Assembly: GCA_943371675.1 (NCBI GenBank)
Contig: CALRVT010000009.1
Location: 21,040-85,039, forward strand
From: Chitinophaga pinensis
GTDB taxonomy: Bacteria > Bacteroidota > Bacteroidia > Chitinophagales > Chitinophagaceae
DNA length: 64,000 nt
Direction: 5' to 3'
Part shown: piece after piece, positions 7,189 through 64,000 of the stretch
Numbering within the stretch: the first letter of the stretch is position 1
Layout: every line of letters starts with the position of its first letter
The notes under the pieces: model-generated
The model's database searches: none
Told to the model about the DNA's origin: nothing
The model's input: only the letters and a program-made list of their open reading frames with translations
Position numbers and translations under genes: made by a program

Positions 7189-7459
7189 TTCTTAGCTTCT
7201 TTAATACTAAGCTTTTCATCTATTTTAGTGTCACTTTATAAAGTGAACCATATTACCTTTAAAGTTCTTCCTTTTTCATTATGGAAAAGGATATTTTTGA
7301 GTCAATTCAATAACTATTTAAAGCTGAGAAATGAATCACTACCAAATCCCCGATTTTGAGTTGTGATTTAGTGTGCCATATTTGACAGTCAGGTATGACA
7401 TTTTTGGTTTTATGTATTAGTATAGCAATTTTTAAAATTTTTTGACCAACACTTCTTTT

Positions 7460-13400: not shown

Positions 13401-16400
13401 CTGCTGGTGGTGTATGGAGTAGTAGTAACACAAATGCGGCAACCATTAATGCAGCAGGACTGGTTACTGGAGCTGCTGCCGGAGTTTCTTCGATCAACTA
13501 TAGGATTACCGGCAGCAATGGTTGTATATCCAATGTTTCAAGACCAATGGTTGTAGTGGCTACACCATCCCAACCTACGGTAACAGCAGATGGACCAACT
13601 ACTTTCTGTTTTGGTGCACATGTATATCTTTCCAGTAATTCATCGAATGGTAATCAATGGTACAGAAATAATATCTTGATGGTTGGTGAAACAGACCAGC
13701 AGCTTTATGTAAATATTAGTGGTTCCTATTCAGTAACAGTAACCGGTGTTACCGGATGTGTAAGCAATGGAACAAGTGTACCTGTATCGGTTACTGTAAA
13801 TACACTACCATTAAAACCAGTGATCAGTGCCTCTGGAAGTTCCGTATTCTGTTCCGGGGATAATGTTCAATTCACCAGTAGTGCAACTTCAGGCAATCAA
13901 TGGTATTATAATGCTTCAACAATTCCAGGCGCAACTGCTGCTACTTATACTGCTTCAAAAACCGGTAATTATGCTGTTCAGGTTACTAATTCTAATGGTT
14001 GTATCAGCCCAATCAGTGACGCGAGTTTCGCCATTTCACTTTCCTTACCTTCCACTCCGATAATCAACACAGATGGTCCGTTAACATTTTGTACAGGTGG
14101 ACAGGTAATATTAACCAGTAGCAGTAGTACAAGTAATCAATGGTACCAGAATGGAATCCCAATCGCTGGCGAAACGAATGCAACTTATACTGCAACAACA
14201 AGTGGTATCTATACTGTAGTGGTAACTTCTTCCAATGGCTGCTCAAGTTCACCAAGTTCTGGAGTTACCGTAACTGTAAACAGTTTGCCTCTAATTAATC
14301 CTATCACAGGTTCTACTTCAACATGTACAAATACGAATACTACCTTCAGCAATACAACAGTAGGTGGCATTTGGAGCAGCAGTAATGATGCTATCGCGAC
14401 TGTAGATCAATTAACAGGGTTAGTAACAGGTGTAAGTTTTGGCACTGCATCTATTATCTATACGGTTACTAATATAAATAGTTGTTCAGATCAAGTAAGT
14501 AAGATAATTGTTATCAATCCGCTGCCCTCTAAACCAATTATCAGCACTAGCGGTAATAATAGTTTTTGTTCTGGAGGATCTGTTACGCTAACTAGTAATT
14601 ATGGATCTAGTTATCAATGGTATAAGGACGGCGCAGTTATTACCGGAGCAACTAATCGTAGTTATATTGCTAGTAACACTGGAAATTATTCAGTTACAAC
14701 TACAAATATCACAAGTTGTAACAGCAGTATGAGTGATGGCATTCAGGTAATAGTGAATCCAATTCCAGGAACACCAGTTATTACTCCTACAGGTTCAAAC
14801 AATATTTGTAAAGGCACATCTATTAGTCTAAGCAGTAGTGCAACATCCGGAAACCAATGGTACATGGATGGTGTTTTAATTAATGGCGCAACTGATCAGA
14901 AATTGATTGTAAATGTTGCAGGCATATATACAGTTACCACCACTAGTGCCAGTGGCTGTACTAGTTCAGCGAGCGTAGGTACTACTGTGCTTGTAAATTC
15001 ACTTCCAACAGTTTCTTCCATTACAGGATCAAGATCTGTTTGCACGGGCAATACGAGTACTTTATCAAATACAAGTACCGGTGGTATATGGAGCAGCAGC
15101 AATACTGCTATCGCAACTATTAATAATACAACCGGCTTGGTTACCGGCATAAGTGCAGGAATTGTAACCATCAGTTATACTGTAACCAATGCAAGTGGAT
15201 GTTCTACAACAGTGTCAACTTTATTCAAAGTAAGTGCTACGCCTGAATTAGCCACTATAACTACAAATACACCTGCTTCATTCTGTTCAGGTGGATCTGT
15301 TGACCTCGTCAGCAGTTCATCAACCGGCAATCAATGGTTTCTCAATGGCTCGTCCATTACCGGTGCAACAGGGCAAGTGTTAACTGTGAATGCTTCTGGT
15401 AGTTATACAGTAACTGTAACTAGTGGCAGTGGTTGTATTTCCAATGGAACAAGTGATCCTTCAATAGTTACTGTGTTCTCTTTACCTACTGTTGCTGCCA
15501 TAGCCGGTAATACAACGATTTGTGTGAATAGTTCCACTCAATTAACCAATACTACCAGTGGAGGAGTATGGAGCAGTAGTAATGAAAATATTGCCAGCAT
15601 CAATAGTTCCGGACTTACTACCGGTATTGCTGCAGGTACAGCCACTATTAGTTATACGGTTACAAACAGCAATGGTTGTGCAGTTACAGTTAATACAATA
15701 GTTACCGTAAATTCCTTACCTACTCAGCCAACTATTTCAGCAGGGGGAGCTACAGTATTTTGCTTTGGAAATTCAGTAATATTAACAAGTACCGCAGGTT
15801 CAACTTATCAATGGTATAAAAACGGATCCATTATTTCAGGTGCAAATTCTATTACCTATTCTGCCACAGGTTCAGGAAATTATACTGTTATTGTTGGAAA
15901 TAATAATGCATGTACAAGTTCAGCTAGTAATGGAATAACAATTACTGTTTACGATCTTCCTGCTACTCCGGTGATCTCAACAAGTGGTCCAACTACTTTT
16001 TGTATTGGTAATACCGTAACATTAACAAGTAATGTTGTATCCGGAAACCAATGGTACCTTAATGGAACAGTGATCAATGGAGCAACCGATCAATCATTAA
16101 TTGTAAACGTAGCTGGCAGCTTTACAGTGGTTGCCACCAATAACAACGGATGTAATAGCATAGCAAGTAATCCAACAGTTGTTACTGTAAACAGTTTACC
16201 TACAACACCTGTAATTACTGCTTCAGGACCTTTAACATTTTGTAATGGTGGAAATGTGTTGTTAACCAGTACAGCAAGCCAAACTTACCTATGGTCAAAA
16301 AATAAAAAACCGATAAACAATGAAACCAATCAAACATTAACAGTTACACAAAGTGGCGCTTATTATGTTACGGTGTCTGATGCGAATAATTGTTCAAGTG

Positions 16401-49262: not shown

Positions 49263-50561
49263 TTAACTATATAACAACCACTCTTTCAAATCTGCAAAAG
49301 ATGCTTTCATTGGGATGCATTTCTTTTCCAATCCGAATAATTTTTTTGCAGAATCTGGCACGTCGATTTTCTTTCCAATGATAGCTTCCACCGTTTCTGG
49401 GAATTTAACAGGATGTGCTGTTTCCAGAATAAACCCATTCTGTTTTGTGTGTAAAGAAAGATACTCTTTCAATGCGCTGTATGCCACAGCACCATGGGGG
49501 TCTAATATATAGCCAAATTCCTGGTAAACCGCTGCAATGGTTGCTCGGGTTAGATCATCAGATACTGTATAACCTGAAATTTTCTCTTTGATAGCTGCAA
49601 AATCGCTTCCGAATAATTCCATCACACGAATAAAATTACTCGGACTGCCAACATCCATAGCATTGGATATGGTAGCAATGGCGTTCTTCTCCTGGTAATT
49701 TCCAGTGCGCAAATAACTGGGCACAGCATCGTTAACATTACAGGCTGCAATAAAATGTTGTACCGGCAATCCACTCATATAGGCTAATATACCTGCACAT
49801 ATATTTCCAAAATTACCACTGGGTATTGCTATTACCGGCGGGTTTGCTTTATCCTTCCATTGCTGGTATGCGAAAAAATAATACAGTTGTTGTGGCAACC
49901 ATCTGGCAACATTGATGGAATTGGCAGATGTTAATTGTAATGCATTATTCAGGTCGGCATCCATGAAAGCTTCTTTAACCATTGCCTGACAATCATCAAA
50001 AGTTCCGGCAATTTCCAATGCCTTGATATTATGCCCACAGGTAGTTAATTGTAATTCCTGCACTGGGCTCACTTTCCCAGAGGGATATAAGATCACAACT
50101 TCCACTCCTTCAACACCCAGAAATCCATTCGCAACGGCACCACCAGTATCACCGGAAGTAGCTACTAATACTGTGATCTTTCCATTATTCTCTTGTGAAA
50201 AATAACCAAGACAGCGGCTCATAAATCTTGCACCCACATCTTTAAAAGCGAGTGTTGGGCCATGAAACAATTCAAAGGATGCAATATTCTCTGAAATCTT
50301 TATCATCGGAAAATCAAAATCCACTGTTTCTGAAGCAATGCGGTAAAGACTTTTTTCATCAATAGTGTCGCCCACATAGGGCTGCATGATCAGTGCTGCA
50401 AGGTCGGCTTTGGAATAATGCTGGATATCCTGGATGACATGAGAACCAATAGCGGGGATGCTTTCAGGAAAATACAAACCCTTATCCGGTGCCTGTCCTT
50501 TGATAGTGGCTTCACGGAAATTAACATTCGGTGCATTTTTATTTAAACTGTAATAATTCAT
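49263..50561 (-). CDS. thrC: Threonine synthase
   Basis: The protein is 432 aa with the PLP-lysine region (PTLAFKDVGARF). It lies in thrABC gene order. Confidence 0.9.
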   Translation of the reverse strand: MNYYSLNKNAPNVNFREATIKGQAPDKGLYFPESIPAIGSHVIQDIQHYSKADLAALIMQPYVGDTIDEKSLYRIASETVDFDFPMIKISENIASFELFHGPTLAFKDVGARFMSRCLGYFSQENNGKITVLVATSGDTGGAVANGFLGVEGVEVVILYPSGKVSPVQELQLTTCGHNIKALEIAGTFDDCQAMVKEAFMDADLNNALQLTSANSINVARWLPQQLYYFFAYQQWKDKANPPVIAIPSGNFGNICAGILAYMSGLPVQHFIAACNVNDAVPSYLRTGNYQEKNAIATISNAMDVGSPSNFIRVMELFGSDFAAIKEKISGYTVSDDLTRATIAAVYQEFGYILDPHGAVAYSALKEYLSLHTKQNGFILETAHPVKFPETVEAIIGKKIDVPDSAKKLFGLEKKCIPMKASFADLKEWLLYS

Positions 50562-50633
50562 GTTGACTGTTTCATGAAAAATCTACTTAGAACAGTATGA
50601 TTTTCTAATTTATTTTATTGGTAAAAATGAGAT

Positions 50634-51602
50634 CTATTCTACAAATCTTACACCAGATTGATTGATGGTTGTAACATAGGTGTGGTGATCCAATGAAAGT
50701 TTTTCATAAACTGTTTTCATCTCCTTCTCTACATCCAGCGCAACTGATTCATCTTTACTGAGCATAAAAATGGAAGGACCAGAACCTGAAATACCTCCAC
50801 CCAATGCACCTGCTTCCTTACTCAACATTTTTATTTTATCAAATCCAGGTATGAGAATACTTCGCACTGGTTCTATTAATACATCTTCTAATGATCTTCC
50901 AATTAATTCGTAATCGCTTTTTAATAGTCCTGTTACCAATCCTGCAATATTGCCCCATTGTTTAATGGCATCTTTCAACAAAACCTGTTGTTTTAAAATA
51001 CTTCTCGCATCTGATGTACGAACTTCTATTTGAGGATGCACGATGGTAACAAATAAGGGAGGAGAGGAAAGTTGGATAATATCTAATGGAAATATTGATC
51101 GCACCAAAGTAACACCCCCAAAAATACAGGGAGCAATATTATCGGCATGTTTTACACCAGATGCTAATTTTTCGCCATTCATAGCAAATCGAACGAGGTC
51201 ATCATTCGAAAAGATATTGCCTAATAATTTGTTGGCTGCAACTACCGCACCTGCAGAACTTGCAGCGCTGGAACCTACACCACTGCCGGGTTTGATGTGC
51301 TTACAAATTCTTAATTCAAAACCCCTTTTTTCTTCCATCTCTTCCTGCATGGCCAATAATGCTGCACCTGCAACATTTAACGTAGGCTCTGTAGGTAACT
51401 GATAGGCATCTTCATTAATGATGCGGATACCTGGTTCCTCTGTAAAACAAATACTCATTTCATCAAAGGGATCATTCACTGCAAAGCCAAGTATGTCAAA
51501 CCCACAGACCATATTAGCTACCGTAGCTGGAGCATGAACAGTAATACCCCCCAGCCCCCTAAAGGGGGAGTATTGAAAATTATTATGATAACTCAATTTC
51601 AT
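50634..51602 (-). CDS. thrB: Homoserine kinase
   Basis: It has the conserved VHAPATVANMVCGFDILG motif and the GHMP kinase motif PGSGVGSSAASSA. The start is set at ATG 51602. The longer ORF to 51689 overlaps thrA. Confidence 0.85.
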   Translation of the reverse strand: MKLSYHNNFQYSPFRGLGGITVHAPATVANMVCGFDILGFAVNDPFDEMSICFTEEPGIRIINEDAYQLPTEPTLNVAGAALLAMQEEMEEKRGFELRICKHIKPGSGVGSSAASSAGAVVAANKLLGNIFSNDDLVRFAMNGEKLASGVKHADNIAPCIFGGVTLVRSIFPLDIIQLSSPPLFVTIVHPQIEVRTSDARSILKQQVLLKDAIKQWGNIAGLVTGLLKSDYELIGRSLEDVLIEPVRSILIPGFDKIKMLSKEAGALGGGISGSGPSIFMLSKDESVALDVEKEMKTVYEKLSLDHHTYVTTINQSGVRFVE

Positions 51603-51662
51603 TTTAAGGCTTTTACAATTAAAAGTTATACTAACTCCCCCTTTAGGGGGTTGGGGGGTGTA
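51545..51662. repeat. Composite palindromic element (family A): two ~28-nt inverted arms, each containing CCCCC-TAAA/TTTA-GGGGG, around a ~60-nt AT-rich core
   Basis: The left arm is TACCCCCCAGCCCCCTAAAGGGGGAGTA (51545..51572). The right arm is ACTCCCCCTTTAGGGGGTTGGGGGGTGTA (51634..51662). The arms match in inverted orientation at about 26 of 28 positions. Confidence 0.8.
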
Positions 51663-54093
51663 CTCTAATAATATCAGCAAATACGCCACTGGCAGTTACA
51701 TCTGCTCCAGCACCAGCTCCCTTGATCACCAATGGTTGTTCAGGATACCTGTCAGTATAAAATAAAACCAGGTTATCCTTACCATAAAGATGGTAGAAAT
51801 CAGAATCCGAAGGGATATGCCTTAAACCAACAGCTGCTTTGCCGTTTTCGTAGGTTGCAACAAATTTTAATTTGCAATTCTTCGCAGCAGCATCTGCATA
51901 TATTTTTTTGAAGTGATCTTCTTGCTTAGCCATCTCTGCATAAAAATCAGCAACACTTCCTTCAAAACAGGAAGCTGGCAGAAAAAATTCATTGGATATA
52001 TCTTCCATCTCCAATTGCTGTCCTGCTTCCCTTGCCAAGATCATGATTTTCCGCATCACATCTGTACCACCCAGATCAAGGCGTGGATCCGGTTCTGTAT
52101 AACCTTCATCCTGTGCCTGCTTTACTACATCAGCAAAGGGTTTGGTTCCATCGTAATTATTGAAAACAAAATTGAGGGTACCTGAAAGTACTGCCTGAAT
52201 TCGATTTACTTTATCACCACTTCTAAGCAGATCATTCAAAGTGCCAATCACAGGTAATCCTGCACCAACATTAGTTTCGAAAAGAAAATGTGCATTGTAT
52301 TCCCTTGCCAGTGATTTTAATTTCTGATAGATAGGATAACTGGAAGAGCAGGCTATCTTATTACATGCAACAACTGAAATGCTTTTACCCAACAATGCCC
52401 CATAAACCGTAGCTACTTCTGCATTAGCAGTTACATCCACAAAAACACTGTTACGCAGATTTTTACTGATGATGTGGTTAACAAAATCATGTATCGTGCC
52501 GGTTTCACCGTTCTGTAAATCTTCTTTCCAGTTAGCGAGATTGATTCCCTCTTCATTCAAAAGGATTTTCTTACTATTGGCTAGTCCAATAACTTGTATT
52601 TGTAAACGCAGATTATCCTGCAAGTATTGGTATTGCTTCGCTATTTGTCCTAATAATTTACCACCAACATTACCTGTACCAGCAATAAAAACATTTAGTT
52701 GCTTATAGGTTTTTTCAAAAAAAGCTTCATGCAAAACATTGATAGCTTTCTTTACATCAGTGCCTGATAAAACTGCAGAGATATTTTTCTCAGATGATCC
52801 CTGTGCTATGGCCCGCACATTGATACCATTTCTTCCCAGTGCACCAAACATTTTTCCACTTACACCCGGGTGACTCTTCATTTGTTCGCCTACCAATGCA
52901 ACAATAGACAATCCGGATTCTACTTTTAAAGGTTCGATGGTACCGCTCTTGATCTCAAAATTAAAGGCCTGGTCTATGGAATGTTTCGCTTTTTCGCTAT
53001 CTGCTTCATTCACACCCACACATATAGAATGTTCAGAAGAGCTTTGGGTAATCAGAATAACATTCACCGATTCTCTGGCCAAAGATTCAAAAAGTCTTTT
53101 AGAAAATCCCGGAATACCCACCATACCACTGCCTTCTAAACTTAGCAGACTTAATTTGTTAATGCTGGATATACCCCGAATAAAACTATCTGTTACTGCA
53201 GATTCATTTTCTATCAAAGTTCCATATTCATCAGGTGCAAATGTGTTTTTTATCCATACCGGAATATTCTTGCTCATTACAGGTTGAATGGTAGGCGGAT
53301 AAATGATCTTAGCACCAAAGTGCGACAATTCCATCGCTTCCTGATAGGATATGCGCTGAATGGGTTTTGCATTTTGCACCAATCTGGGATCGGCTGTCAT
53401 CATACCACTTACGTCTGTCCAGATCTCTAGAACAGAAACATTTAGGGCTGCAGCAAATATCGCTGCAGTATAATCTGAACCGCCTCTGCCAAGTGTGGTG
53501 GTATTACCATCCGTATCACCAGAAATGAAACCAGGTGCAACATATAGCGTGTGCTTATTCTCTGCAATGGCTTTTTGAATTAGCAGATCCGTTGCTAAAA
53601 AATCAACAGAAGCATTTCCATAATGGTCATTTGTAACAATGAGCTTGCGACAATCCAGCCATTGTTGATCTAACTGTAAAGCTTGAAGGGCAGCAGCAAT
53701 GATTTGAGAAGACAACAACTCTCCATAGCTAACAATTCTATCTTTTGTACGTGGCGACAATTCATTCAAAAGAAAAACACCATCACAAATTCCTTCCAGC
53801 TGGTTAAAATGCTGTTTTACCAAACTCAAAGTGGCGCTTTGCTGCTGAATGGGTAAAAGTTCCCGCACAGTTTCGAGGTGTCTTGTTTCTAATTCACGTA
53901 AATGATTTTTATACAATTCATCAGACACGGATGCCAGATAACCCAGATTCAATAATTGATCCGTTACCCCACCTAAAGCCGAAACCACCAACACGGTGGA
54001 TTCTTTCTCTAATGCTTTTTGAACGATAGCAATCACTTTATGTATGTTAGCAGCATTGGCTACCGAACTACCTCCAAATTTTAATACCTGCAT
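51643..54093 (-). CDS. thrA: Bifunctional aspartate kinase / homoserine dehydrogenase I
   Basis: The protein is 816 aa with an N-terminal kinase domain (MQVLKFGGSSVANA) and ACT domains. It has a C-terminal homoserine dehydrogenase domain (GTGNVGG). Confidence 0.9.
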   Translation of the reverse strand: MQVLKFGGSSVANAANIHKVIAIVQKALEKESTVLVVSALGGVTDQLLNLGYLASVSDELYKNHLRELETRHLETVRELLPIQQQSATLSLVKQHFNQLEGICDGVFLLNELSPRTKDRIVSYGELLSSQIIAAALQALQLDQQWLDCRKLIVTNDHYGNASVDFLATDLLIQKAIAENKHTLYVAPGFISGDTDGNTTTLGRGGSDYTAAIFAAALNVSVLEIWTDVSGMMTADPRLVQNAKPIQRISYQEAMELSHFGAKIIYPPTIQPVMSKNIPVWIKNTFAPDEYGTLIENESAVTDSFIRGISSINKLSLLSLEGSGMVGIPGFSKRLFESLARESVNVILITQSSSEHSICVGVNEADSEKAKHSIDQAFNFEIKSGTIEPLKVESGLSIVALVGEQMKSHPGVSGKMFGALGRNGINVRAIAQGSSEKNISAVLSGTDVKKAINVLHEAFFEKTYKQLNVFIAGTGNVGGKLLGQIAKQYQYLQDNLRLQIQVIGLANSKKILLNEEGINLANWKEDLQNGETGTIHDFVNHIISKNLRNSVFVDVTANAEVATVYGALLGKSISVVACNKIACSSSYPIYQKLKSLAREYNAHFLFETNVGAGLPVIGTLNDLLRSGDKVNRIQAVLSGTLNFVFNNYDGTKPFADVVKQAQDEGYTEPDPRLDLGGTDVMRKIMILAREAGQQLEMEDISNEFFLPASCFEGSVADFYAEMAKQEDHFKKIYADAAAKNCKLKFVATYENGKAAVGLRHIPSDSDFYHLYGKDNLVLFYTDRYPEQPLVIKGAGAGADVTASGVFADIIRVHPPTP

Positions 54094-54212
54094 ATATATT
54101 CTTCTTCTATTATTAGTGTGATTTTATTGACCCTAAATTCTGTGTAAATCTGTGTAACCTGTGGCTAATATTCCATTTCGCAATCCATGTTGCGGATATA
54201 TGTTTTTTCTAT

Positions 54213-55472
54213 TTAAACCAAATACCCAAACAAATTATCATTTTGCTTCAATTCCGTATAATTTATATGGTACCTGCACATATTCTCTATTAATACCTGA
54301 TAGTCTTCTTTTGATTTTAACTCAATGCCCACCAATGCCGGGCCGGTTTCCTTATTGTGCTTTTGCATGTATTCAAAACGAGTGATATCATCCCCTTCGC
54401 CCAATACATGGTTTACAAATTCTTTTAATGCGCCTGGTCTTTGTGCAAAACGGATCAGGAAATAATGTTTCAGACCTTCATATTGCAGTGACCTCTCTTT
54501 TATCTCCTGCATTCGGTCTATATCATTATTACTCCCGCTTACAATACAAACCACTGTTTTGCCTTTTATTACATCGGCGTAGTCATCCAGTGCTGTGATA
54601 GACATTGCACCGGCGGGTTCTACAACAATCGCGTCTTCATTATATAATTGCAGGATCGTAGTACAAATTTTTCCTTCGGGTACAAGATGCATGTCATCCA
54701 ATACACTATTGCAGATTTTGAATGTGATCTCACCTACTCTCTTTACTGATGCACCATCTACAAATCTTTCAATATTATCCAATGTTACCGGATGACCCGC
54801 TTTCATTGCTTCAAACATTGAGGGTGCCCCTTCCGGTTCCAGTCCGACAATTCTTGTTTTTGGCGAAAAAGTTTTGAAGTAAGCACCTACACCTGCACTT
54901 AATCCACCGCCACCAACAGGTATGAAAAGAAAATCAATATCGGCGCGGTCTTCTAATATTTCTACGCCAACCGTAGCCTGCCCTTCAATAATTTTGATAT
55001 CATCAAATGGCGGGATGAAGGTCATCCCGTTTTCTTCCGTATACTTTTTTGCTGCAACTGCACAATCATCAAAAGTATCACCGGTTAGCCTTACTTCAAT
55101 ATAGCCTTCACCAAACATTTTAGTCTGACTAACTTTCTGATTAGGTGTAATAATAGGCATGAACACCACACCTTTTACATTCAACTTTTTACAACTGTAG
55201 GCAAAACCCTGTGCATGGTTTCCTGCACTGGCGCATACCACCCCTTTTTCTAACTGCTCAACCGGCAAACTGCTCATCATATTATAAGCTCCTCGTAACT
55301 TATAGGATCTTACTACCTGAAGGTCTTCTCTTTTCAAGTATACATCGCACTGGTATTTACGGGATAAATTATGGTTATAAGTAAGCGGTGTTCTTTTCAC
55401 GATCTTTTTCAACCGTTTTGCGGCTGATTGAAAGTCGAGAAGAGGCTGTTCAAGAAGGGAGTTGTTGGGCAT
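54213..55472 (-). CDS. ilvA: Threonine ammonia-lyase (biosynthetic, single regulatory domain)
   Basis: The PLP-Lys region reads LKREDLQVVRSYKLRGA and the glycine loop reads GGGGLSAG. Total length is 419 aa. Confidence 0.85.
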   Translation of the reverse strand: MPNNSLLEQPLLDFQSAAKRLKKIVKRTPLTYNHNLSRKYQCDVYLKREDLQVVRSYKLRGAYNMMSSLPVEQLEKGVVCASAGNHAQGFAYSCKKLNVKGVVFMPIITPNQKVSQTKMFGEGYIEVRLTGDTFDDCAVAAKKYTEENGMTFIPPFDDIKIIEGQATVGVEILEDRADIDFLFIPVGGGGLSAGVGAYFKTFSPKTRIVGLEPEGAPSMFEAMKAGHPVTLDNIERFVDGASVKRVGEITFKICNSVLDDMHLVPEGKICTTILQLYNEDAIVVEPAGAMSITALDDYADVIKGKTVVCIVSGSNNDIDRMQEIKERSLQYEGLKHYFLIRFAQRPGALKEFVNHVLGEGDDITRFEYMQKHNKETGPALVGIELKSKEDYQVLIENMCRYHINYTELKQNDNLFGYLV

Positions 55473-55483
55473 ACATTTATATT

Positions 55484-55520
55484 TACCTAACGCGAAAGTT
55501 TCAGGAACTTTCGCGTTAGG
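55484..55520 (-). other. Perfect 16-bp stem hairpin between ilvC and ilvA
   Basis: The arms are acctaacgcgaaagtt and aactttcgcgttaggt with loop tcagg. It has no U-tract on the coding strand. Confidence 0.6.
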
Positions 55521-55528
55521 TTATTCGG

Positions 55529-56587
55529 TTAAGCTTTCGGCGCCTGGTTTTCAGGACGCAGACTTCTAACAGTTTTACCTGCCTGCCATATTTCACTATC
55601 GTGTAACTCTTTTAATTCAACTTCCAGTTTTTCACGATAATCAGCCTTACTGTTACTTTCTATAGACTTTGCTGCTTCTTTACCAGTTGCTACACTTTCA
55701 TATAGTTCTGTAAATACGGGTAAGGTTGCATCACGGAATTTTTTCCACCAGTCCAAAGCACCACGTTGTGCAGTAGTAGAACAGTTGGCATACATCCAAT
55801 CCATTCCATTTTCAGCTACCAGAGGCATAAGAGATTGTGTTAATTCTTCCACTGTTTCGTTGAAAGCTTCAGAAGGAGTATGCCCTTTGGAACGCAATAC
55901 CTCATATTGTGCTGCAAAAATTCCCTGAATAGCACCCATCAAAGTTCCACGCTCACCGGTAAGATCACTGAATACTTCTTTTTTGAAATTGGTTTCAAAA
56001 AGGTATCCACTACCAATGGCAATACCCAAAGCCACTACTCTTTCAAATGCTCGTCCGGTAGCATCTTGAAATATTGCATAACTACTGTTCAAACCACGAC
56101 CCTGTAAAAACATTCTACGCAGAGATGTACCCGATCCTTTAGGAGCTACCAGAAATACATCAACATCTGCTGGTGGTATAATACCAGTTTGATCATTATA
56201 TGTAACACCAAAGCCATGTGAGAAATACAAAGCTTTACCAGCGGTAAGATGCTTTTTTACTGTTGGCCACATAGCAATTTGTGCAGCATCACTTAATAGA
56301 TAACAAATGATGGTACCACGTTCTAATGCTTCTTCAATTTCAAAAAGTGATTCACCGGGTACAAAGCCATCTTTCACTGCCTTATCCCAGCTCTTTGAAT
56401 TTTTCCTTTGACCAACTATTACATTAATGCCGTTTTCTTTTTGATTCAGCGCCTGACCAGGCCCCTGAACGCCATAACCAATTACTGCTACCACTTCATT
56501 CTTCAATACTTCCTGGGCTTTTGCCAAAGGAAACTCATCACGTGTTACAACATTTTCTTCAACGCCACCGAAATTTAATTTTGCCAT
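55529..56587 (-). CDS. ilvC: Ketol-acid reductoisomerase
   Basis: It has the NADP-binding loop VIGYGVQGPGQALN. It is a 352-aa class I enzyme. Confidence 0.9.
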   Translation of the reverse strand: MAKLNFGGVEENVVTRDEFPLAKAQEVLKNEVVAVIGYGVQGPGQALNQKENGINVIVGQRKNSKSWDKAVKDGFVPGESLFEIEEALERGTIICYLLSDAAQIAMWPTVKKHLTAGKALYFSHGFGVTYNDQTGIIPPADVDVFLVAPKGSGTSLRRMFLQGRGLNSSYAIFQDATGRAFERVVALGIAIGSGYLFETNFKKEVFSDLTGERGTLMGAIQGIFAAQYEVLRSKGHTPSEAFNETVEELTQSLMPLVAENGMDWMYANCSTTAQRGALDWWKKFRDATLPVFTELYESVATGKEAAKSIESNSKADYREKLEVELKELHDSEIWQAGKTVRSLRPENQAPKA

Positions 56588-56600
56588 GGTTTTTGTTTTG

Positions 56601-56631
56601 TACCCCCTTGCCCCCTAAAGGGGGAATTGGG
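56601..56631. repeat. Family A repeat, solo copy (TACCCCCTTGCCCCCTAAAGGGGGAATTGGG)
   Basis: Its core is near-identical to the left arm at 51545. It lies in the ilvN-ilvC spacer. Confidence 0.7.
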
Positions 56632-56694
56632 ATTTGTTTTAAATGAAATTTATAATTACAAAAAATAAGTTTACTGATCTTGAATTGCTTGGTA

Positions 56695-57291
56695 TCACAT
56701 TGAAAATACTTCTCCCTGTTTATCCAGGTACTCATTTTCTACGAGTTCCTCTGCAGGTTCTGCCTCATCAAACTCTTTTAGTTTTTCATGAAAGCCTTTG
56801 CTATTTTTTATGATAGCTACCCTTGCACTACGCACAAACTCTATCAACCCATAGGGAGCTAATACCTGAACTAGGTTTTCTGTTTCTGCCCTGTGTCCAC
56901 TGGTTTCAAAAATGGTGTAATCTTTTCTGATCACTACTGCACGGGCACCATGTTCACGTAATAAACGCTCTACCTGAACTTTTTCGGCTATTTCATCTGT
57001 AGGCACTTTGTATAATGCAAGTTCCTGCCATACTATTTCCTCATCGGTATTGTAATAAGCTTTCAATACTTCAACCTGCTTCTCAATTTGCCGGGCCAGT
57101 TTCCGCACCACTTCTTCTGTTTCGTCGATTACAATCGTAAACCGGTGAATACCTTCTGCCTCTGAAGGAGATGTATTCAAACTTTCAATATTGATCTTCC
57201 TTCTTGAGAAGATGGTTGCAATACGAACCAGTAAACCAATATGATTCTCTGTGTAAACGGTTATGGTAAATTCTTTTTTCATAAATGCCAC
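56695..57291 (-). CDS. ilvN: Acetolactate synthase small (regulatory) subunit
   Basis: It has an ACT domain (TITVYTENHIGLLVRIATIFSRRKINIESL). The start may instead be the Met at 57282. Confidence 0.85.
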   Translation of the reverse strand: MAFMKKEFTITVYTENHIGLLVRIATIFSRRKINIESLNTSPSEAEGIHRFTIVIDETEEVVRKLARQIEKQVEVLKAYYNTDEEIVWQELALYKVPTDEIAEKVQVERLLREHGARAVVIRKDYTIFETSGHRAETENLVQVLAPYGLIEFVRSARVAIIKNSKGFHEKLKEFDEAEPAEELVENEYLDKQGEVFSM

Positions 57292-57330
57292 TCCCTTATT
57301 CCCAAAATGGGAATTATTTTTTTAAATAAA

Positions 57331-59097
57331 TTATTTCAACCTTACTTCACTTACGCTACAACCCTGTGGTACCATAGGAAATACATTATTCTCTTTTCCT
57401 ACCATCACTTCCAGCATATAAGAACCATTATGATCTAGCATTGTTTTTAATGCAGATTTCAAATCGGCCCTTTCCGAAACTTTTTGACCCTCAATACCAT
57501 AGCCCTTTGCAACCATTACATAATCCGGACTGGCGATATCAACAAAAGAATATCGTTTGTCGTTAAACAATTGCTGCCATTGACGCACCATACCCAAAAA
57601 CTCATTATTCAAAATGAGGATCTTGACATTAACTTCCGATTGCATGATGGTGCCAAATTCTTGAATGGTCATCTGTATACCACCATCTCCAATGATGGCC
57701 ACCACAGTTCTTTCAGGTGCACCAAACTTGGCGCCAATAGCTGCCGGCAGTCCAAAGCCCATTGTGCCCAAACCACCTGATGTTATATTACTTTTTGACT
57801 GGTTGAATTTTGCATACCTGCAAGCTACCATTTGATGCTGTCCTACATCGGTTACAATAATGGCATCACCGTTGGTCAATTCGTTCAGGTTACGAATTAC
57901 TTCACCCATTGTAAGTATCTCAGAAACTGGGTTCAACTCATCGTGAATCACTTCTTTGATCTCTTCTTTTTCGCAAGCTTTAAATTTCTCCAGCCATTCT
58001 GTATGATTTTTTGCATCAACCAGTCTGGTTAATAAGGGCAATGTTTCTTTACAATCGCCCCATACACCAATAGTTGCTTTTACATTCTTATCTATCTCAG
58101 CAGGATCGATATCCAGATGGATCACTTTTGCCTGTTTTGCATATTTGTCTAAACGGCCGGTAACCCTATCATCAAAGCGCATACCTACTGCAATCAATAC
58201 ATCACATTCGTTGGTCATTACATTGGGACCATAATTTCCATGCATACCCAGCATTCCTACATTCAATGGATGATCTGTAGGAAGTGCACTCAAACCCAAG
58301 ATCGTCCAGGCTGCAGGTAATCCGGCTTTTTCAATAAATTCTTTGAATTCTTTTTCTGCTTTACCCAGTATCACACCCTGTCCAAAAATGACAAATGGTT
58401 TTTTTGCTTCATTGATCAGTTTAGCTGCTTCTTCAACGTATTCCTTACGCACAATGGGTTTGGGGCGATAACTTCTGATATGGTTACATTTTTGATAACC
58501 ATCATAAGCAATTTTCTGGATCTGTGCATTCTTGGTAATATCAACCAATACTGGTCCGGGCCTACCGGTTCTGGCCAAGTAAAAAGCTTTGGCTAATACG
58601 GATGGAATTTCATTGGCATCTGTTACCTGGTAATTCCACTTTGTAACTGGTGTAGTGATATTGATCACATCAGTTTCCTGAAATGCATCGGTACCCAACA
58701 AATGCGCAAATACCTGACCAGTGATAGCCACCAGTGGTGTACTATCAATCATGGCATCTGCCAAACCTGTTACCAGATTGGTAGCACCTGGTCCACTTGT
58801 AGCAAATACCACCCCTACTTTTCCGGATGAACGGGCAAAACCTTGTGCAGCATGAATCCCGCCCTGTTCATGGCGAACAAGTATGTGTTTGAGCCTGTCA
58901 TTGTAATCATATAAAGCATCATAAATGGGCATGATGGCTCCTCCGGGATATCCGAAAACCGTTTCTATACCTTCAGCGATCAATGCTTCCAATACAGCTT
59001 GTGAGCCGGAATATTCACCAGCTCCCTGTTTTGGAACTTGTACTGAAACTTGCTTTTTGCTCGTTTCATTTTTTACTAATTCTTCAACTGTACCCAT
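57331..59097 (-). CDS. ilvB: Acetolactate synthase large subunit (ThDP-dependent)
   Basis: Motifs include ETVFGYPGGAIMPIYDAL and the ThDP motif GDGGIQMTIQEFGT...NN. Total length is 588 aa. Confidence 0.9.
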   Translation of the reverse strand: MGTVEELVKNETSKKQVSVQVPKQGAGEYSGSQAVLEALIAEGIETVFGYPGGAIMPIYDALYDYNDRLKHILVRHEQGGIHAAQGFARSSGKVGVVFATSGPGATNLVTGLADAMIDSTPLVAITGQVFAHLLGTDAFQETDVINITTPVTKWNYQVTDANEIPSVLAKAFYLARTGRPGPVLVDITKNAQIQKIAYDGYQKCNHIRSYRPKPIVRKEYVEEAAKLINEAKKPFVIFGQGVILGKAEKEFKEFIEKAGLPAAWTILGLSALPTDHPLNVGMLGMHGNYGPNVMTNECDVLIAVGMRFDDRVTGRLDKYAKQAKVIHLDIDPAEIDKNVKATIGVWGDCKETLPLLTRLVDAKNHTEWLEKFKACEKEEIKEVIHDELNPVSEILTMGEVIRNLNELTNGDAIIVTDVGQHQMVACRYAKFNQSKSNITSGGLGTMGFGLPAAIGAKFGAPERTVVAIIGDGGIQMTIQEFGTIMQSEVNVKILILNNEFLGMVRQWQQLFNDKRYSFVDIASPDYVMVAKGYGIEGQKVSERADLKSALKTMLDHNGSYMLEVMVGKENNVFPMVPQGCSVSEVRLK

Positions 59098-59149
59098 ACA
59101 ATCATTTTTACTTTATATAATCACCCCTAATATGGGGCAAAGGTTTCTA

Positions 59150-60835
59150 TTACAACATATCTGTTACACAACCTTCTGATGCATCTTTTACCTGTTGTGC
59201 ATATTTGAACAAAACGCCCTTTGTTGCTTTTAATGCTGGCTGCTTCCAACCTGCTTTTCTATTTTCTATCTCGGCTGCTGCTACTTTTAATGCCATTTGC
59301 TTGGTTGCAACATTCAATTCAATTATGTCATCATCCTGCACAAAAGCGATAAGACCGCCCAGATACGCTTCAGGTGTTATATGGCCTACTACAAAACCAT
59401 GTGTACCCCCACTGAATCTGCCATCTGTTATCAAAGCCACTGATTTACCCAAGCCTGCACCAATAATGGCCGATGTTGGCTTCAGCATTTCTGGCATGCC
59501 CGGTGCACCTTTGGGTCCTACATTCCTGATCACGACCACATCACCGGATTTTATTTTTCCTGAATTAATGCCGGCTATTAATTGTTGCTCTCCATCAAAT
59601 ACCCTCGCCGGACCTTCAAAACACTCTCCTTCTTTTCCACTGATTTTTGCCACGCTACCACCTTCCGCCAGATTACCATATAAGATTTGTAAATGCCCTG
59701 TTGCTTTTATCGGCGTCTCAATAGGAAGAATTATTTTTTGCTGATTAAAATCCAGATCAGGTACGTTGGCAACATTTTCAGCCAATGTTTTTCCGGTTAC
59801 TGTTAAACAATCACCATGCAATAAACCTTTTTGCAAAAGGTATTTGGTTACGGCTGGTACACCACCATATTGATGCAGATCCTGCATCAGGTATTTACCA
59901 CTTGGCTTGAAATCTGCCAGTACCGGCACTTTATCACTGATCGCCTGAAAATCATCCTGTGTTAAATTAACATCCACACTCTTGGCCATAGCAATCAAAT
60001 GCAATACAGCATTGGTACTGCCTCCCATAACCATTACCATAGTAATGGCATTTTCAAATGCCTTGCGCGTCATGATATCTTTGGGCTTGATATCTTTTTC
60101 CAATAAATTTCTGATGGCATTGCCAGCATCCAGGCATTCCTGCTTTTTTTCTTCACTCAACGCCGGGTTGGAAGAAGAATAAGGCAAACTCATCCCCAAT
60201 GTTTCTATGGCAGATGCCATGGTATTGGCAGTATACATACCACCACAGGCACCTGCACCCGGACAGGCATTTTTAATAATACCCTTGAAGTCAGCTTCAT
60301 CCAGCTGACCAGCCAATTTTTGTCCCAATGCTTCAAATGCAGAAACAATATTCAAATCCTGGCCATTATAATGACCAGGTGCAATAGTACCACCATACAC
60401 CATGATAGCAGGTCTGTTTAACCTTCCCATTGCGATGATAGAACCAGGCATATTTTTATCACAACCCGGTAAGGCTATTACGCCATCATAATATTGTGCA
60501 CCACATACCGCTTCAATAGAGTCAGCTATGATATCCCTACTCACCAATGAATAACGCATGCCGTCTGTACCATTGCTCATACCGTCACTTACACCAATGG
60601 TATGAAAGATCAATCCCACCAAATCACTTTCCCAAATACCTTTTTTTACCAGTTGTGCAAGATCATTCAAGTGCATATTACAGGTATTGCCATCATAGCC
60701 CATACTCACTACACCTACCTGTGCTTTTTTCAAGTCATCATCAGTTAGGCCAATACCGTATAACATAGCCTGTGCAGCAGGTTGTGTAATGTCTTGTGTG
60801 AGTGTTTTACTGTATTTATTTATTTCGTTTCCCAT
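59150..60835 (-). CDS. ilvD: Dihydroxy-acid dehydratase
   Basis: Motifs include CDKNMPG and [11 protein letters not shown]. Total length is 561 aa. Confidence 0.9.
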
Positions 60836-60856
60836 TCCTTTTTTTTATGTAATTCA

Positions 60857-61768
60857 CTATTCTACGCCTGATATTTCATTCAAGGTTTCCTGCTTATTTT
60901 CCCTGATCAAATTTTGATAAGCATCCTGTATCAATTTGCTTTGTGTATTAGCCCAAGGCATCGTAAAAGGCTTATCATCCAATGATGCTAATCCAATTAC
61001 TTCAGCAGCCGTACCACAATAAAAAGCTGCATCAGCTCCATACAAATCTTCTTTGGTAAACATTTTTTCTTCTACCGGAATATGCAATTCATCACATAAT
61101 TCTAGAACTGTTGCTCTAGTGATACCTGGCAAAATATTTCCGAGCGCAGGTGTATATAATCTGCCATCTTTTTCATAAAAAATATTGGCACCCGGGCCTT
61201 CTGCTATATTTCCGTTCATGTCTGTTAATAAGGCTTCGTCAAATCCATTTGCTTTAGCTTCCTGACTGGCCATGATAGAGTTTACATAATGACCTGCGGC
61301 TTTGGCATGTATCTTAAACCCTTTAGGATTGGGCCTTTCAAAGGAAGATGTCATGATTCGCAAAAGCTTGTCACCCAAAAACGGTCCCATTTCCCAAACC
61401 TGAATTACTATGAATGATTCGGTATTCAACTGAAAACTCATATTGGCAGGTGCATAGATAACCGGTCTGATATAAGCATCCTGAATGCCATTCTTTGCCA
61501 ATAATGTATATGTAACATCTATCAGTTCTTTAGTATCATACGTATAGGGCAAATTAATAGATAAGGCAGAGCGCTTCAATCTTTCAAAATGATCAACCGC
61601 TTTAAAAATCTTAGTTGTGCCATTTACTGTTTTATACGAACGTATTCCCTCAAAAACAGAATAGCCATAGTGGAATGACTGGCTATAAAAATCCATTTTC
61701 GCCTCAGATGCTTTTACAAATGAGCCGTTAAGGTAGAGTACAGTGTTTTCGTTGTAATAATTTGCCAT
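60857..61768 (-). CDS. ilvE: Branched-chain amino acid aminotransferase (fold type IV)
   Basis: The protein is 303 aa with a class IV aminotransferase layout (EGIRSY, E.PGANIF, GITR). The call is supported by its position at the head of the ilv genes. Confidence 0.75.
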   Translation of the reverse strand: MANYYNENTVLYLNGSFVKASEAKMDFYSQSFHYGYSVFEGIRSYKTVNGTTKIFKAVDHFERLKRSALSINLPYTYDTKELIDVTYTLLAKNGIQDAYIRPVIYAPANMSFQLNTESFIVIQVWEMGPFLGDKLLRIMTSSFERPNPKGFKIHAKAAGHYVNSIMASQEAKANGFDEALLTDMNGNIAEGPGANIFYEKDGRLYTPALGNILPGITRATVLELCDELHIPVEEKMFTKEDLYGADAAFYCGTAAEVIGLASLDDKPFTMPWANTQSKLIQDAYQNLIRENKQETLNEISGVE

Positions 61769-61792
61769 AATATTTTTTGTTCTTTGTTAGGG

Positions 61793-61827
61793 AAATAAAA
61801 AGCCCCGCCTTTTTGGAGGCGGGGCTT
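61793..61827 (-). terminator. Intrinsic terminator of the ilv/thr attenuator
   Basis: On the minus strand it reads AAGCCCCGCC-CTCCAAAA-GGCGGGGCTT followed by TTTATTT. It ends about 25 nt upstream of the ilvE ATG. Confidence 0.8.
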
Positions 61828-61844
61828 ATATGCTTAGTATTTTT

Positions 61845-61949
61845 TTACCAGATAAAGACGCTACCTCCATGGAGTGCAGGAATAATAATGACCATCACGA
61901 TCGTAATCGTTGTAATGACGGTATATATATTTTTCATTTTGCGCATCAT
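61845..61949 (-). CDS. Leader peptide MMRKMKNIYTVITTITIVMVIIIPALHGGSVFIW (34 codons)
   Basis: I translated this by hand from the minus strand, as it falls below the ORF-track length cutoff. It contains 8 Ile, 4 Thr and 4 Val codons, and 14 of the 16 codons from 8 to 23 are I/T/V. Its stop codon lies 20 nt before the terminator stem. Confidence 0.7.
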   Translation of the reverse strand: MMRKMKNIYTVITTITIVMVIIIPALHGGSVFIW

Positions 61950-61968
61950 GTTGCAATAGCTTCTCAAA

Positions 61969-61999
61969 CGAAAATACTCCCACCTGCTCAAAAAACAAA
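61969..61999 (-). promoter_or_regulatory. Candidate Bacteroidota-type promoter for the leader (TTTG -33, TATTTTCG -7)
   Basis: On the minus strand TTTG (61999..61996) is followed by 19 nt and then TATTTTCG (61976..61969). The known consensus is TTTG / TAnnTTTG, so there is one mismatch. Confidence 0.25.
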
Positions 62000-62056
62000 G
62001 AACTACTTAAACTATTTTAATAAATGTTACTATTCTTCCGCAATTACTGATAGCTA

Positions 62057-63172
62057 TCAGATAATTGTTGACTTATTCAATTCGGCATTACTTGTATGCT
62101 GATCTTCTCCTGTATGCTTTTCTATATGATCTCTGATCAGATCCCCGATAGCTGTTGTTGCATAATTGTTGATAGCATCAATATCTTTTGTAACAAAGCC
62201 ATGTGCTAATGTCCAGGCAACCGCTTCCCTAACTGCAACAGCTTCTTTCTGCATCTGAAAATGGTCAAGCATCATGGCTGCAGACAGAATGGAGCCAAGC
62301 GGGTTGGCAATATCCTTTCCTGCAGCTTGCGGATAAGAACCATGAATAGGTTCAAACAAAGCTGTTGTATTGCCTACAGATGCAGAAGGCAGCAAACCCA
62401 ATGAACCACTTAAAACACTGGCTTCATCACTAATGATATCGCCAAACATGTTTTCAGTAAGGACCACATCAAATTGTGAAGGATTGATAATGATCTGCAT
62501 GGCTGCATTGTCTACAAACATATAATCAACAGTTACATCACTATATGCTGTGGCTATTTCCTGCACTACTTTACGCCATAAACGGGAAGTTTCCAGCACA
62601 TTGGCCTTATCTACCAGGGTAAGTTTGCGTTTTCTTTTTTGTGCATATTGAAATGCCAGATGCGACACCCTTTCTATTTCACTTCTGCTATAAGAACATT
62701 CATCAATGGCCGACTGCTGATCGGCACTTAATTCTTTTTTTCCAAAATAGATCCCACCTGTTAGCTCACGAAAAATAACAAAATCAACTCCTTTTAATTG
62801 TTTGCTTTTTAAAGGCGATAAATGATGCAGTGAATGATAAGTGCTAATAGGCCTGATATTGGCAAACAATTGTAGCTCCTTACGCAATTTCAGCAAACCC
62901 TGTTCTGGTCTTACTTTGGCAGTAGGGTCGTTATCATATTTTGGATGACCGATAGCACCAAATAAAATAGCATCACTATCTAAACAAATACTTATTGTTT
63001 CATCCGGCAAAGGATTGCCTGTTTTATCAATGGCATCAGCACCCATGATGGCTTCGCGGTAATAAAAATTATGCCCGAAACGCTTCCCTATAGCATCCAG
63101 TACCTTTATAGATTGTCTGGTTACTTCGGGTCCAATACCATCTCCTAATATTACAGCTATCTTCTTTTCCAT
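62057..63172 (-). CDS. leuB: 3-isopropylmalate dehydrogenase
   Basis: Motifs include IAVILGDGIGPEV and NMFGDIISDEAS. Total length is 371 aa. Confidence 0.9.
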   Translation of the reverse strand: MEKKIAVILGDGIGPEVTRQSIKVLDAIGKRFGHNFYYREAIMGADAIDKTGNPLPDETISICLDSDAILFGAIGHPKYDNDPTAKVRPEQGLLKLRKELQLFANIRPISTYHSLHHLSPLKSKQLKGVDFVIFRELTGGIYFGKKELSADQQSAIDECSYSRSEIERVSHLAFQYAQKRKRKLTLVDKANVLETSRLWRKVVQEIATAYSDVTVDYMFVDNAAMQIIINPSQFDVVLTENMFGDIISDEASVLSGSLGLLPSASVGNTTALFEPIHGSYPQAAGKDIANPLGSILSAAMMLDHFQMQKEAVAVREAVAWTLAHGFVTKDIDAINNYATTAIGDLIRDHIEKHTGEDQHTSNAELNKSTII

Positions 63173-63198
63173 ATTTATTTCAGTGCAACCTTTAATAC

Positions 63199-63780
63199 TT
63201 ATAATTTATTTTCAAATGCTTCGATGGCTTCCCTGTTACTGATGAGGTAATCAATATCATCATACCCGTTTAGTAAACATGTTTTTTTATAAAGATTTAT
63301 TTCAAACTTTTCCTCTTCTCCTGTAGAATCTATCAAAATCGACTGTTGCTCCACATCAATACTGATGGTGTCTTCTGCGCCTAATTCAAATAGTTGCGCA
63401 AGAAAATCATCACTTACCTTAACCGGTAAAACACCGTTATTCAATGCATTGTTTTTAAATATGTCTGCAAAGAAACTGGAAACAACTGCTTTGAATCCAT
63501 AGTCTTGTAATGCCCATGCAGCGTGCTCTCTGGAAGAACCACATCCAAAATTTTTACCTGCAACCAAAACCTCGCCACTGAACTTTGCCTGATTCATAAC
63601 AAAATCCGGTTTGGGTTTTGTATCATCATTATTCTCATAACGCCAATCACGAAAGAGATTCTTACCAAAACCATCACGGGTGGTAGCTTTTAAAAACCTG
63701 GCCGGAATGATCTGGTCGGTATCTACATTCTCCATCTGCAAGGGAACAAAGCGACTATGTATTTTTTTTAATGCTATCAT
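63199..63780 (-). CDS. leuD: 3-isopropylmalate dehydratase small subunit
   Basis: Motifs include [14 protein letters not shown] and [13 protein letters not shown]. Total length is 193 aa. Confidence 0.9.
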
Positions 63781-63828
63781 AAACCAACCCTCTATGGGTA
63801 AATTTTTTAATTAATAAAATATAAATGC

Positions 63829-64000
63829 CTAATGGATCGGCTCCAGTTCACGCACATCCGTTATAACCCCAGTGATTGCGGCCGCTGCTGCTGTTAAAGG
63901 ACTGGCCAATAATGTTCTGGCACCTGCGCCCTGCCTGCCTTCAAAATTCCTGTTGCTGGTGCTGATACAATATTCTCCTGCTGGAATCTTATCATCATTC
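63829..64000 (-). CDS. leuC: 3-isopropylmalate dehydratase large subunit, 3' end only (continues beyond window)
   Basis: Hand translation of the minus strand from 63999 gives [56 protein letters not shown]. This contains the aconitase-family [10 protein letters not shown] motif. It is not in the ORF track because no start codon lies within the window. Confidence 0.85.

Follow-up and report, generated by a model that had tools for sequence, protein, structure and literature searches.

A predicted ribosome-mediated leader-peptide attenuator of the ilvEDBNCA operon in a Chitinophagaceae genome

The minus strand of the stretch of Chitinophaga pinensis contig CALRVT010000009.1 analysed here (64,000 nt, referred to as the window) carries, by NCBIfam assignment, the genes leuD, leuB, ilvE, ilvD, ilvB, ilvN, ilvC, ilvA, thrA and thrB in this order, and a spacer of 288 nt separates the leuB stop (62057) from the ilvE ATG (61768). 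On a longer contig of the source genome (locus L082) the genes upstream of the spacer are leuA, leuC, leuD and leuB, and the operon downstream of it encodes, from the same gene assignments, the synthesis of isoleucine (Ile) and valine (Val). The spacer contains a small open reading frame (ORF) dominated by codons for Ile, Val and threonine (Thr) and, beyond its stop codon, an intrinsic terminator. We interpret this element, from its sequence and its conservation in relatives, as a probable ribosome-mediated leader-peptide transcription attenuator of ilvEDBNCA that responds mainly to Ile and Val, and put the probability of this reading at about 0.87. The features on which the description rests are the following.

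61845..61949, minus strand: leader peptide ORF, 34 codons plus stop, encoding MMRKMKNIYTVITTITIVMVIIIPALHGGSVFIW
61881..61928, minus strand: regulatory codon run, codons 8–23 of the leader, IYTVITTITIVMVIII, with 7 Ile, 3 Val and 4 Thr
61800..61827, minus strand: intrinsic terminator hairpin, AAGCCCCGCCT-CCAAAA-AGGCGGGGCTT, with its 5′ arm at 61827..61817 and its 3′ arm (region 4) at 61810..61800
61791..61799, minus strand: terminator U-tract, TTTATTTCC; the sequence after the stem reads TTTATTT
60857..61768, minus strand: ilvE (NCBIfam), first structural gene of the ilvE-ilvD-ilvB-ilvN-ilvC-ilvA operon, which extends down to 54213

Both the coordinates and the peptide of the leader ORF are exactly as given in a preliminary description of this DNA, and its count of 14 Ile, Thr or Val codons among the 16 from codon 8 to codon 23 agrees with ours. 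The run closes with ATT ATT ATT, followed by CCT, and the leader as a whole contains 8 Ile, 4 Val and 4 Thr in its 34 codons. Across all six frames the window has about 2,300 stop-free stretches, and just two of them reach a density of 14/16. Codon choice is also skewed, with GTC accounting for three of the four Val codons of the leader compared to 5/190 Val codons in six neighbouring genes (within 54213..63172), which fits a stall-sensitive design; across 45 leaders, ATT makes up 74% of the Ile codons, compared to 44% in the genes of the window. An exact look-up of the peptide MMRKMKNIYTVITTITIVMVIIIPALHGGSVFIW in a collection of 15 billion proteins found it absent, and the leader is therefore unannotated. 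We note one other Ile- and Val-rich (I/V-rich) stop-free stretch in the window (9062..9148, minus strand, ..KIIMVMIIIVVVVIVIVTF), which lies antisense to an ORF of 3,571 codons (7442..18157, plus strand), has neither a start codon nor a terminator context, and is regarded as a side effect of low-complexity coding.

The terminator stem has 11 bp, eight of them G-C, and folds at −22.3 kcal/mol. It begins 17 nt past the leader stop codon, and the end of the stem and the end of the U-tract are 31 nt and about 22 nt, respectively, from the ilvE ATG; the hairpin and U-tract noted in the preliminary description are thus present, although the stem is longer than the 10 bp and closer to the stop codon than the 20 nt given there. 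In a terminator and promoter scan of 14 kb (50000..64000) the hairpin at 61827..61800 is the terminator-like site of rank 1. The leader as a whole (211 nt) is also unusually stable, with a z-score of −3.22 and none of 200 dinucleotide shuffles equally stable. When 36 leaders are aligned, RNAalifold recovers only the terminator, with compensatory changes in 5 of its 8 consensus stem pairs, the kind of stem change that the preliminary description had proposed looking for.

Conservation of the element was examined in 80 ilvE loci of Bacteroidota, represented by one genome per GTDB species and sharing 51–94% protein identity, with leaders scored as small ORFs that start with ATG, have at least six Ile or Val in ten residues and lie within about 450 nt upstream of ilvE. 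The closest ilvE relatives of the window are in Chitinophagaceae, near Sediminibacterium. An I/V-rich ATG ORF, a terminator-like hairpin and a T-run are found directly upstream of ilvE in 62 of the 80 loci, to which Flavihumibacter profundi KCTC 62290 (locus L051, 3735–4003) can be added as a further case, with the same leader (..NLHTIITLITVIIVVVLVIPVIHGGAYCM) and a GGTCCGCCTCC terminator. This leader lacks an in-frame ATG and likely starts with GTG, and scans restricted to ATG therefore undercount the family; it is the only leader that emerged from inspection of the spacers by eye, and none was found elsewhere within 4 kb of the 18 loci that were negative in the first scan. The small ORF, on whose conservation the preliminary description had staked its reading, is therefore widely retained. 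Of 63 scored leaders, 62 have a terminator-like hairpin after the ORF, L058 alone being without a call, and the stems are 8–12 bp long in all but L075, for which the scan picked a weak 5-bp stem. Of 402 random 532-nt windows drawn from the same loci as a control, 10 contain an I/V-rich small ORF, and in none of these is the ORF followed by a stem of 8 bp or more. The leader accompanies ilvE and not leuB, as 24 of the leader-bearing loci have no leuB within 4 kb.

The leader-bearing loci fall in the Chitinophagaceae, in Ohtaekwangia, Dawidia and Parachryseolinea isolates, in metagenome-assembled genomes (MAGs) labelled Cyclobacteriaceae, in Pedobacter and in the Flavobacteriia, and the peptides differ from clade to clade while the Ile/Val-rich composition is constant. 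Chitinophagaceae-like leaders share the pattern ...(I/V)n-V-I-I-I-P-A-L-H-G-G, those of Ohtaekwangia, Dawidia and Parachryseolinea read VLVIVVILLVVKPAGAMV, those of Pedobacter ALIIVIINVILLLIIQ, and those of the Flavobacteriia IINIVISIVIVIIN and VIIIVIVIM. Ile and Val constitute 24% and 15% of the residues of the Chitinophagaceae-like leaders and leucine (Leu) 7%, with Leu at 14% in the other clades. The mean leader has 7.5 Ile, 4.7 Val and 1.8 Thr, and Thr can be absent altogether, so that Ile and Val in the preliminary label of an Ile/Thr/Val leader are borne out by conservation but Thr is not. Substitutions within the leader are coding-like, with column entropies of 0.83, 0.50 and 1.15 bits at codon positions 1, 2 and 3 among 38 codon-anchored sequences. 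At the nucleotide level, Chitinophagaceae-like leaders show hardly any variation in the segment GTC ATT ATT ATT CCT, and the third positions of ATT ATT ATT CCT are conserved.

Between the codon run and the terminator lies a segment that is complementary to the 5′ arm of the terminator, and the predicted alternative structures involve three further regions, numbered in the order of transcription.

61947..61965, minus strand: region 1, predicted 5′ untranslated region (UTR) and leader start codon (GAGAAGCUAUUGCAACAUG), predicted partner of region 2 when the RNA is free of ribosomes
61859..61870, minus strand: region 2, predicted 5′ strand of the antiterminator (AUGGAGGUAGCG), beginning 10 nt past the last Ile codon
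61827..61817 and the first loop bases, minus strand: region 3, the terminator 5′ arm, of which GCCUCCA (61820..61814) is predicted to pair with region 2

Region 2 of the window is predicted by RNAduplex to pair with the terminator 5′ arm at −13.7 kcal/mol (z = −2.55), and complementarity of this kind is found in every clade. Across the leaders the antiterminator duplexes have a mean z-score of −2.96 against mononucleotide shuffles, and in 50 of 63 leaders the duplex ranks within the best 5% of shuffles. The complementary strands themselves are different in different clades: GGAGG(N)GG with CC(G)CCUCC in Chitinophagaceae (core GGAGG:CCUCC, with the GGAGG nearly invariant in Chitinophagaceae-like leaders), GGGGCG:CGCCCC in Ohtaekwangia and Dawidia, GGCGCU:AGCGCC in Pedobacter, and UUGAGAAAGG:CCUUUCUCAA and GAUACAG:CUGUAUC in the Flavobacteriia. 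A 16 × 16 cross-pairing matrix shows that the distinctive arms (Pedobacter, L074, L076 and L077/L079) pair best with the segment from their own leader or clade, and single matching variants can be read by eye as AGAGG/CCUCU in L038 and L042, GGGGG/CCCC in L043 and GGCGG/CCGCC(A) in L078.

Constrained folds of the window leader, in which a 28-nt ribosome footprint (a size taken from general knowledge) was masked, are consistent with these pairings acting as alternatives. With a ribosome at any of codons 10–23 and the terminator 3′ arm not yet made, the predicted fold is UGGAGGU:GCCUCCA plus GC:GC, which is close but not identical to the pairing with CGCCTCC in the terminator arm that the preliminary description had suggested; a competing structure does exist. 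The terminator is the predicted outcome both with the ribosome placed at the stop codon and without any ribosome. In the ribosome-free fold the 5′ UTR and start codon are also paired with the 3′ end of the ORF in a long, imperfect hairpin, and in the unconstrained fold of the window the partner of region 1 is CAUGG..GGUAGC.UCUU. The spacing is similarly maintained, with pairing starting 10–12 nt past the last Ile codon in most Chitinophagaceae-like leaders and the leader stop codon within about −10 to +11 nt of the end of the region 2 pairing; on the footprint used here, region 2 would start at the leading edge of a ribosome with the last Ile codon in its A site. Support for pairing of region 1 with region 2 is modest. 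Among 36 relatives the predicted cognate duplexes average −10.0 kcal/mol compared to −8.6 kcal/mol for non-cognate ones (permutation p = 0.0002, uncorrected for relatedness), and in only 9 of the 36 does the duplex beat 95% of shuffles.

Upstream of the leader lies a promoter-like sequence, composed of two elements.

61996..62004, minus strand: −33-like element AGTTCTTTG, with TTTG at 61999..61996, 19 nt upstream of the −7 box
61969..61976, minus strand: −7-like element TATTTTCG, a motif match to TAnnTT(T/C)G

The sigma-A promoter consensus of Bacteroidota has TTTG at −33 and TAnnTTTG at −7, with a spacer of about 19 nt. The window arrangement, TTTG-N19-TAnnTT(T/C)G, is most likely a promoter from which transcription of the leader would start. 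The motif TTTG-N18–20-TAnnTT(T/C)G occurs upstream of the leader in 37 of 45 Chitinophagaceae-like loci, and in most of these loci the −7 box ends 13–22 nt ahead of the leader ATG. Chitinophagaceae-like loci hardly vary in the block AGTTCTTTGTTT that surrounds the −33 element, and the conservation of this block (window 61969..62004, minus strand; loci L002–L054) extends far beyond the needs of a bare TTTG, such that it might double as a regulator binding site or an UP-like element. In the Puia-type loci L031, L034 and L044 (at about 3830–3850; peptide MKASSLIIIVVVIIIPAIQGGGW) the −7-like box ends just 4 nt before the leader ATG, and the leader mRNA of these loci is therefore probably leaderless or nearly so.

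The ORF and the terminator, the conservation and coding-like evolution of the former, the promoter motif, the alternative pairing and the association with ilvE were all obtained computationally, and from them we infer how stalling, its timing and the physiological response could be connected. Transcription would start at the conserved promoter between leuB and the leader, with a possible contribution of read-through from leuACDB, and the 34-codon leader would be translated while RNA polymerase advances. If charged tRNA-Ile and tRNA-Val were scarce, the ribosome would stall in the I/V run that ends in ATT ATT ATT, leaving GGAGG, which lies 12 nt beyond the run (with pairing from +10), just past its leading edge. 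The exposed GGAGG could then pair with the CCUCC of the terminator 5′ arm and loop, no terminator would form, and the polymerase would enter ilvE. With an ample supply, the ribosome would go on to the stop codon, where it would keep the GGAGG segment apart from the terminator arm or cover it; the 11-bp terminator would then form and end transcription. If no ribosome were present, the 5′ UTR and start codon would bind the GGAGG segment and the terminator would again form.

Several observations do not sit easily with this interpretation. The element is missing from 17 of the 80 loci, including the closest relative (L001), and is therefore dispensable. L001 is a MAG contig with 94% ilvE identity in which, at 1450–1670, a clean deletion of about 194 nt relative to the window (61797..61990, minus strand) takes out the −7 box, the entire leader ORF and the terminator, with its junction within T-runs (TTTGTTTTTT | TTTCCC); it is either an artefact of assembly or a natural variant without the attenuator, whose ilvE would then form part of the leu transcript. 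The folds place the terminator ahead of the antiterminator at equilibrium in all cases, and the switch must therefore be kinetic, as in the classical cases. In the cross-pairing matrix, G-rich segments and C-rich arms also pair across the boundary between Chitinophagaceae and Ohtaekwangia, and for the terminator arm of the window itself the cognate pair ranks 8th of 16. Within Chitinophagaceae, column covariation of the antiterminator is not above that of column shuffles (79% of cells pair) and that of the helix between 5′ UTR and region 2 is not above shuffles either, because both strands hardly vary and a few alignment rows are also shifted. The predicted antiterminator is thus supported by co-variation between clades and by energy, and not by statistics within the family.

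Other explanations of the same features have to be weighed against attenuation by a translating ribosome. The terminator might be conditional and yet be governed by a sensor other than the ribosome, such as a protein, an uncharged tRNA or a small molecule, with the ORF incidental or merely supportive. Such a sensor would account for the invariance of GTCATTATTATTCCT and GGAGG at the nucleotide level, third positions included, which points to constraint on the RNA itself, and the dominance of the terminator at equilibrium could mean that some factor is required. However, Rfam scans of the window and 12 related loci gave no match at threshold to any family of riboswitches, T-boxes or protein-binding leaders. 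Clades whose RNA is otherwise unrelated have all kept an I/V-rich ORF with an in-frame ATG and stop and with coding-like substitutions, for which the fold of a ligand-binding RNA would offer no explanation, and the enriched codons specify the amino acids that the operon itself produces; we regard this explanation as unlikely.

The ORF could also be an independent small gene for a genuine hydrophobic membrane peptide, with its own terminator and upstream of ilvE by chance. With about 16 hydrophobic residues after a charged N-terminus, its product does resemble a single-pass membrane peptide, and IIIPALHGG is kept at the amino acid level in Chitinophagaceae, but the hydrophobic stretch is specific for Ile and Val and not rich in Leu, phenylalanine or alanine, the conserved codons at the C-terminal end fall on the strand predicted to pair with the terminator, and no peptide family matches at threshold. 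Outside the I/V run the peptides are wholly different between clades whereas the position upstream of ilvE and the composition are constant, which leaves a membrane peptide very improbable. Least credible is that the hairpin is a plain terminator of leuACDB and the ORF a chance frame in an AT-rich spacer. leuB does end 230 nt upstream on the same strand with no terminator in between, and the window has one other stop-free I/V-rich stretch; the conserved promoter motif between leuB and the ORF and the complementarity of the ORF's 3′ end to the terminator arm argue against it, and the 24 loci with ORF and terminator before ilvE and no leuB nearby, together with the 0/402 of the random-window control, effectively refute it. 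The preliminary reading of the element as a ribosome-mediated attenuator is, with the corrections described above, supported by the conserved ORF, the terminator and the competing pairing.

A variant of the attenuation mechanism would give the ribosome's anti-Shine-Dalgarno (anti-SD) sequence a part in it, such that SD:anti-SD pairing, beyond steric occlusion, would help to set the choice between terminator and antiterminator; a translating or terminating ribosome would compete for GGAGG with two anti-SD-like motifs. Nearly all Chitinophagaceae leaders have CCUCC in the terminator arm and loop, and many relatives have a pyrimidine-rich, CCUCC-like tract before the leader AUG, where the window instead pairs GCUAUU with GGUAGC. 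The GGAGG that Chitinophagaceae leaders retain almost without change inside the ORF is itself SD-like, in a phylum in which SD sequences are generally avoided and the anti-SD is kept occluded. Plain RNA–RNA pairing explains all of these observations equally well, and we consider participation of the anti-SD distinctly doubtful.

Leader-peptide attenuation of ilvE has a published counterpart in the same phylum. In Flavobacterium psychrophilum, an Ile-rich leader (MRKFNIIPSIIIAIVIITTAKGML) in the structured, transcribed 5′ region of ilvE was interpreted as leader-peptide attenuation in a transcriptome study (Guerin et al. 2021, ISME Commun, PMC9723704, main text, supplement D9 and Table S7), and the preliminary description, which calls such attenuators rarely annotated in Bacteroidota, has to be supplemented by this published case; the curated libraries have no family for the element. 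The F. psychrophilum element likewise has an Ile-rich short ORF directly upstream of ilvE-ilvD-ilvB, and the Flavobacteriia loci L075–L077 and L079 have the same kind of leader. It belongs to the Flavobacteriia and the window to the Chitinophagia, and the likeness is one of composition and position, with little prospect of detecting homology between the sequences. A core of GTCATTATTATTCCT ... GGAGG ... CCGCCUCC that hardly varies and a conserved promoter are features of the Chitinophagaceae version, and the published description contains neither an antiterminator model nor a comparative analysis.

The same logic underlies the enterobacterial ilvXGMEDA operon with its leader IlvL, in which ilvE, ilvD and ilvA are also among the controlled genes. 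The sequence of Escherichia coli IlvL was checked (MTALLRVISLVVISVVVIIIPPCGAALGRGKA), and its core is very similar to that of the Chitinophagaceae relatives (...VVVVIIIPALHGG) and of the window (...IVMVIIIPALHGG): VVVIIIP in E. coli, the identical string in L030, L031 and L036, and VMVIIIP in the window. In both systems a G-rich segment a few codons past the last Ile codon complements the C-rich terminator 5′ arm, in the E. coli case GUGCGGGG with CCCCGCAC. They differ in that ilvE is the first gene here, in the type of promoter, and in translation initiation, with no SD sequence but a pyrimidine-rich tract before the AUG. Eight leader peptides were scanned against the corresponding families, with E. 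coli IlvL as positive control (61.5 bits for Pfam PF08046, IlvGEDA_leader, and 81.9 bits for NCBIfam NF007744). The window peptide scores 13.5 bits against PF08046 (E = 0.057, cut-off 25), six other Bacteroidota leaders, three of them from Chitinophagaceae, give no match, and NF007744 matches neither the window leader nor the others. Membership of the IlvL family is not supported by these scores, and the resemblance to the enterobacterial leader remarked on earlier is thus apparent by eye but falls below both family thresholds. Common ancestry with IlvL is neither demonstrable nor dismissible, as the peptides are too short.

At the gathering score, Rfam has no match in the window or the 12 related loci. 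The best sub-threshold scores of the window in a permissive scan are those of Phe_leader (27.1 against a threshold of 55), Thr_leader (24.0 against 55) and Trp_leader (16.5 against 41), and the Phe_leader and Thr_leader matches stem mainly from the terminator; Leu_leader, His_leader and Bacteroid-trp are likewise below the gathering threshold in all of these loci. Thr_leader (RF00506), Phe_leader (RF01859), Trp_leader (RF00513) and Bacteroid-trp (RF01692) resemble the window element in combining a leader ORF with a terminator and antiterminator before a biosynthetic operon. Candidate attenuators of branched-chain amino acid, His, Thr, Trp and Phe genes were reportedly described in 2004 by Vitreschak and colleagues in Proteobacteria, with some in Bacteroidetes/Chlorobi. 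Bacteroid-trp, a Bacteroidetes Trp leader, has been in Rfam since 2010, showing that such elements were already predicted in the phylum (PMC2864571), and two further studies (Naville & Gautheret 2010; Korolev et al. 2016) have nothing specific on ilv leaders of Bacteroidota.

The window element is the Chitinophagaceae branch of an ilvE leader family that spans the Bacteroidota, which will not surprise specialists, and the textbook picture is unchanged, since the mechanism would be classical and an equivalent Flavobacterium element is already known. The family is conserved and widespread in the phylum but absent from Rfam, Pfam and NCBIfam, and is consequently missed by annotation pipelines; for the source genome, the gain is an unannotated regulatory gene and a defined candidate on/off switch on the branched-chain amino acid operon. 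Cultured isolates with the family include F. profundi KCTC 62290, Puia sp. P3, Flavitalea sp. BT771, and Pedobacter and Dawidia species, and the leaders could serve as a convenient natural reporter of how transcription is coupled to translation and how ribosomes stall in a phylum whose translation initiation does not involve SD pairing.

The flanking biosynthetic genes offer a few further observations. Neither a Leu-rich leader nor a strong terminator was found ahead of leuACDB in the source genome (L082:5077–5291), where a 21-codon ORF (MAIDNKSKQPVFSSEQVPKKN) upstream of leuA has its end coincident with the leuA start codon. The 119-nt spacer between ilvA and thrA (54094..54212, minus strand) has no Thr-rich leader ORF and only a weak hairpin (TCCGCAACATGGATTGCGAA) without a U-tract, and the thr genes of the window therefore appear not to be under the control of a leader-peptide attenuator. 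Among the loci without a leader, one uncultured lineage (L048:3900–4000; also L045, L052 and L053) has ilvE directly after leuA, with a GC-rich hairpin and T-run (GCGTGGCGCATTTGCGCCGCGCTTTTT) at the junction that could be a terminator with no obvious sensor. In two others (L050:3780–4003 and L055:3413–3665) the leaderless leuB–ilvE spacer holds short tandem GGAAGTC/GGAAGAC-like repeats.

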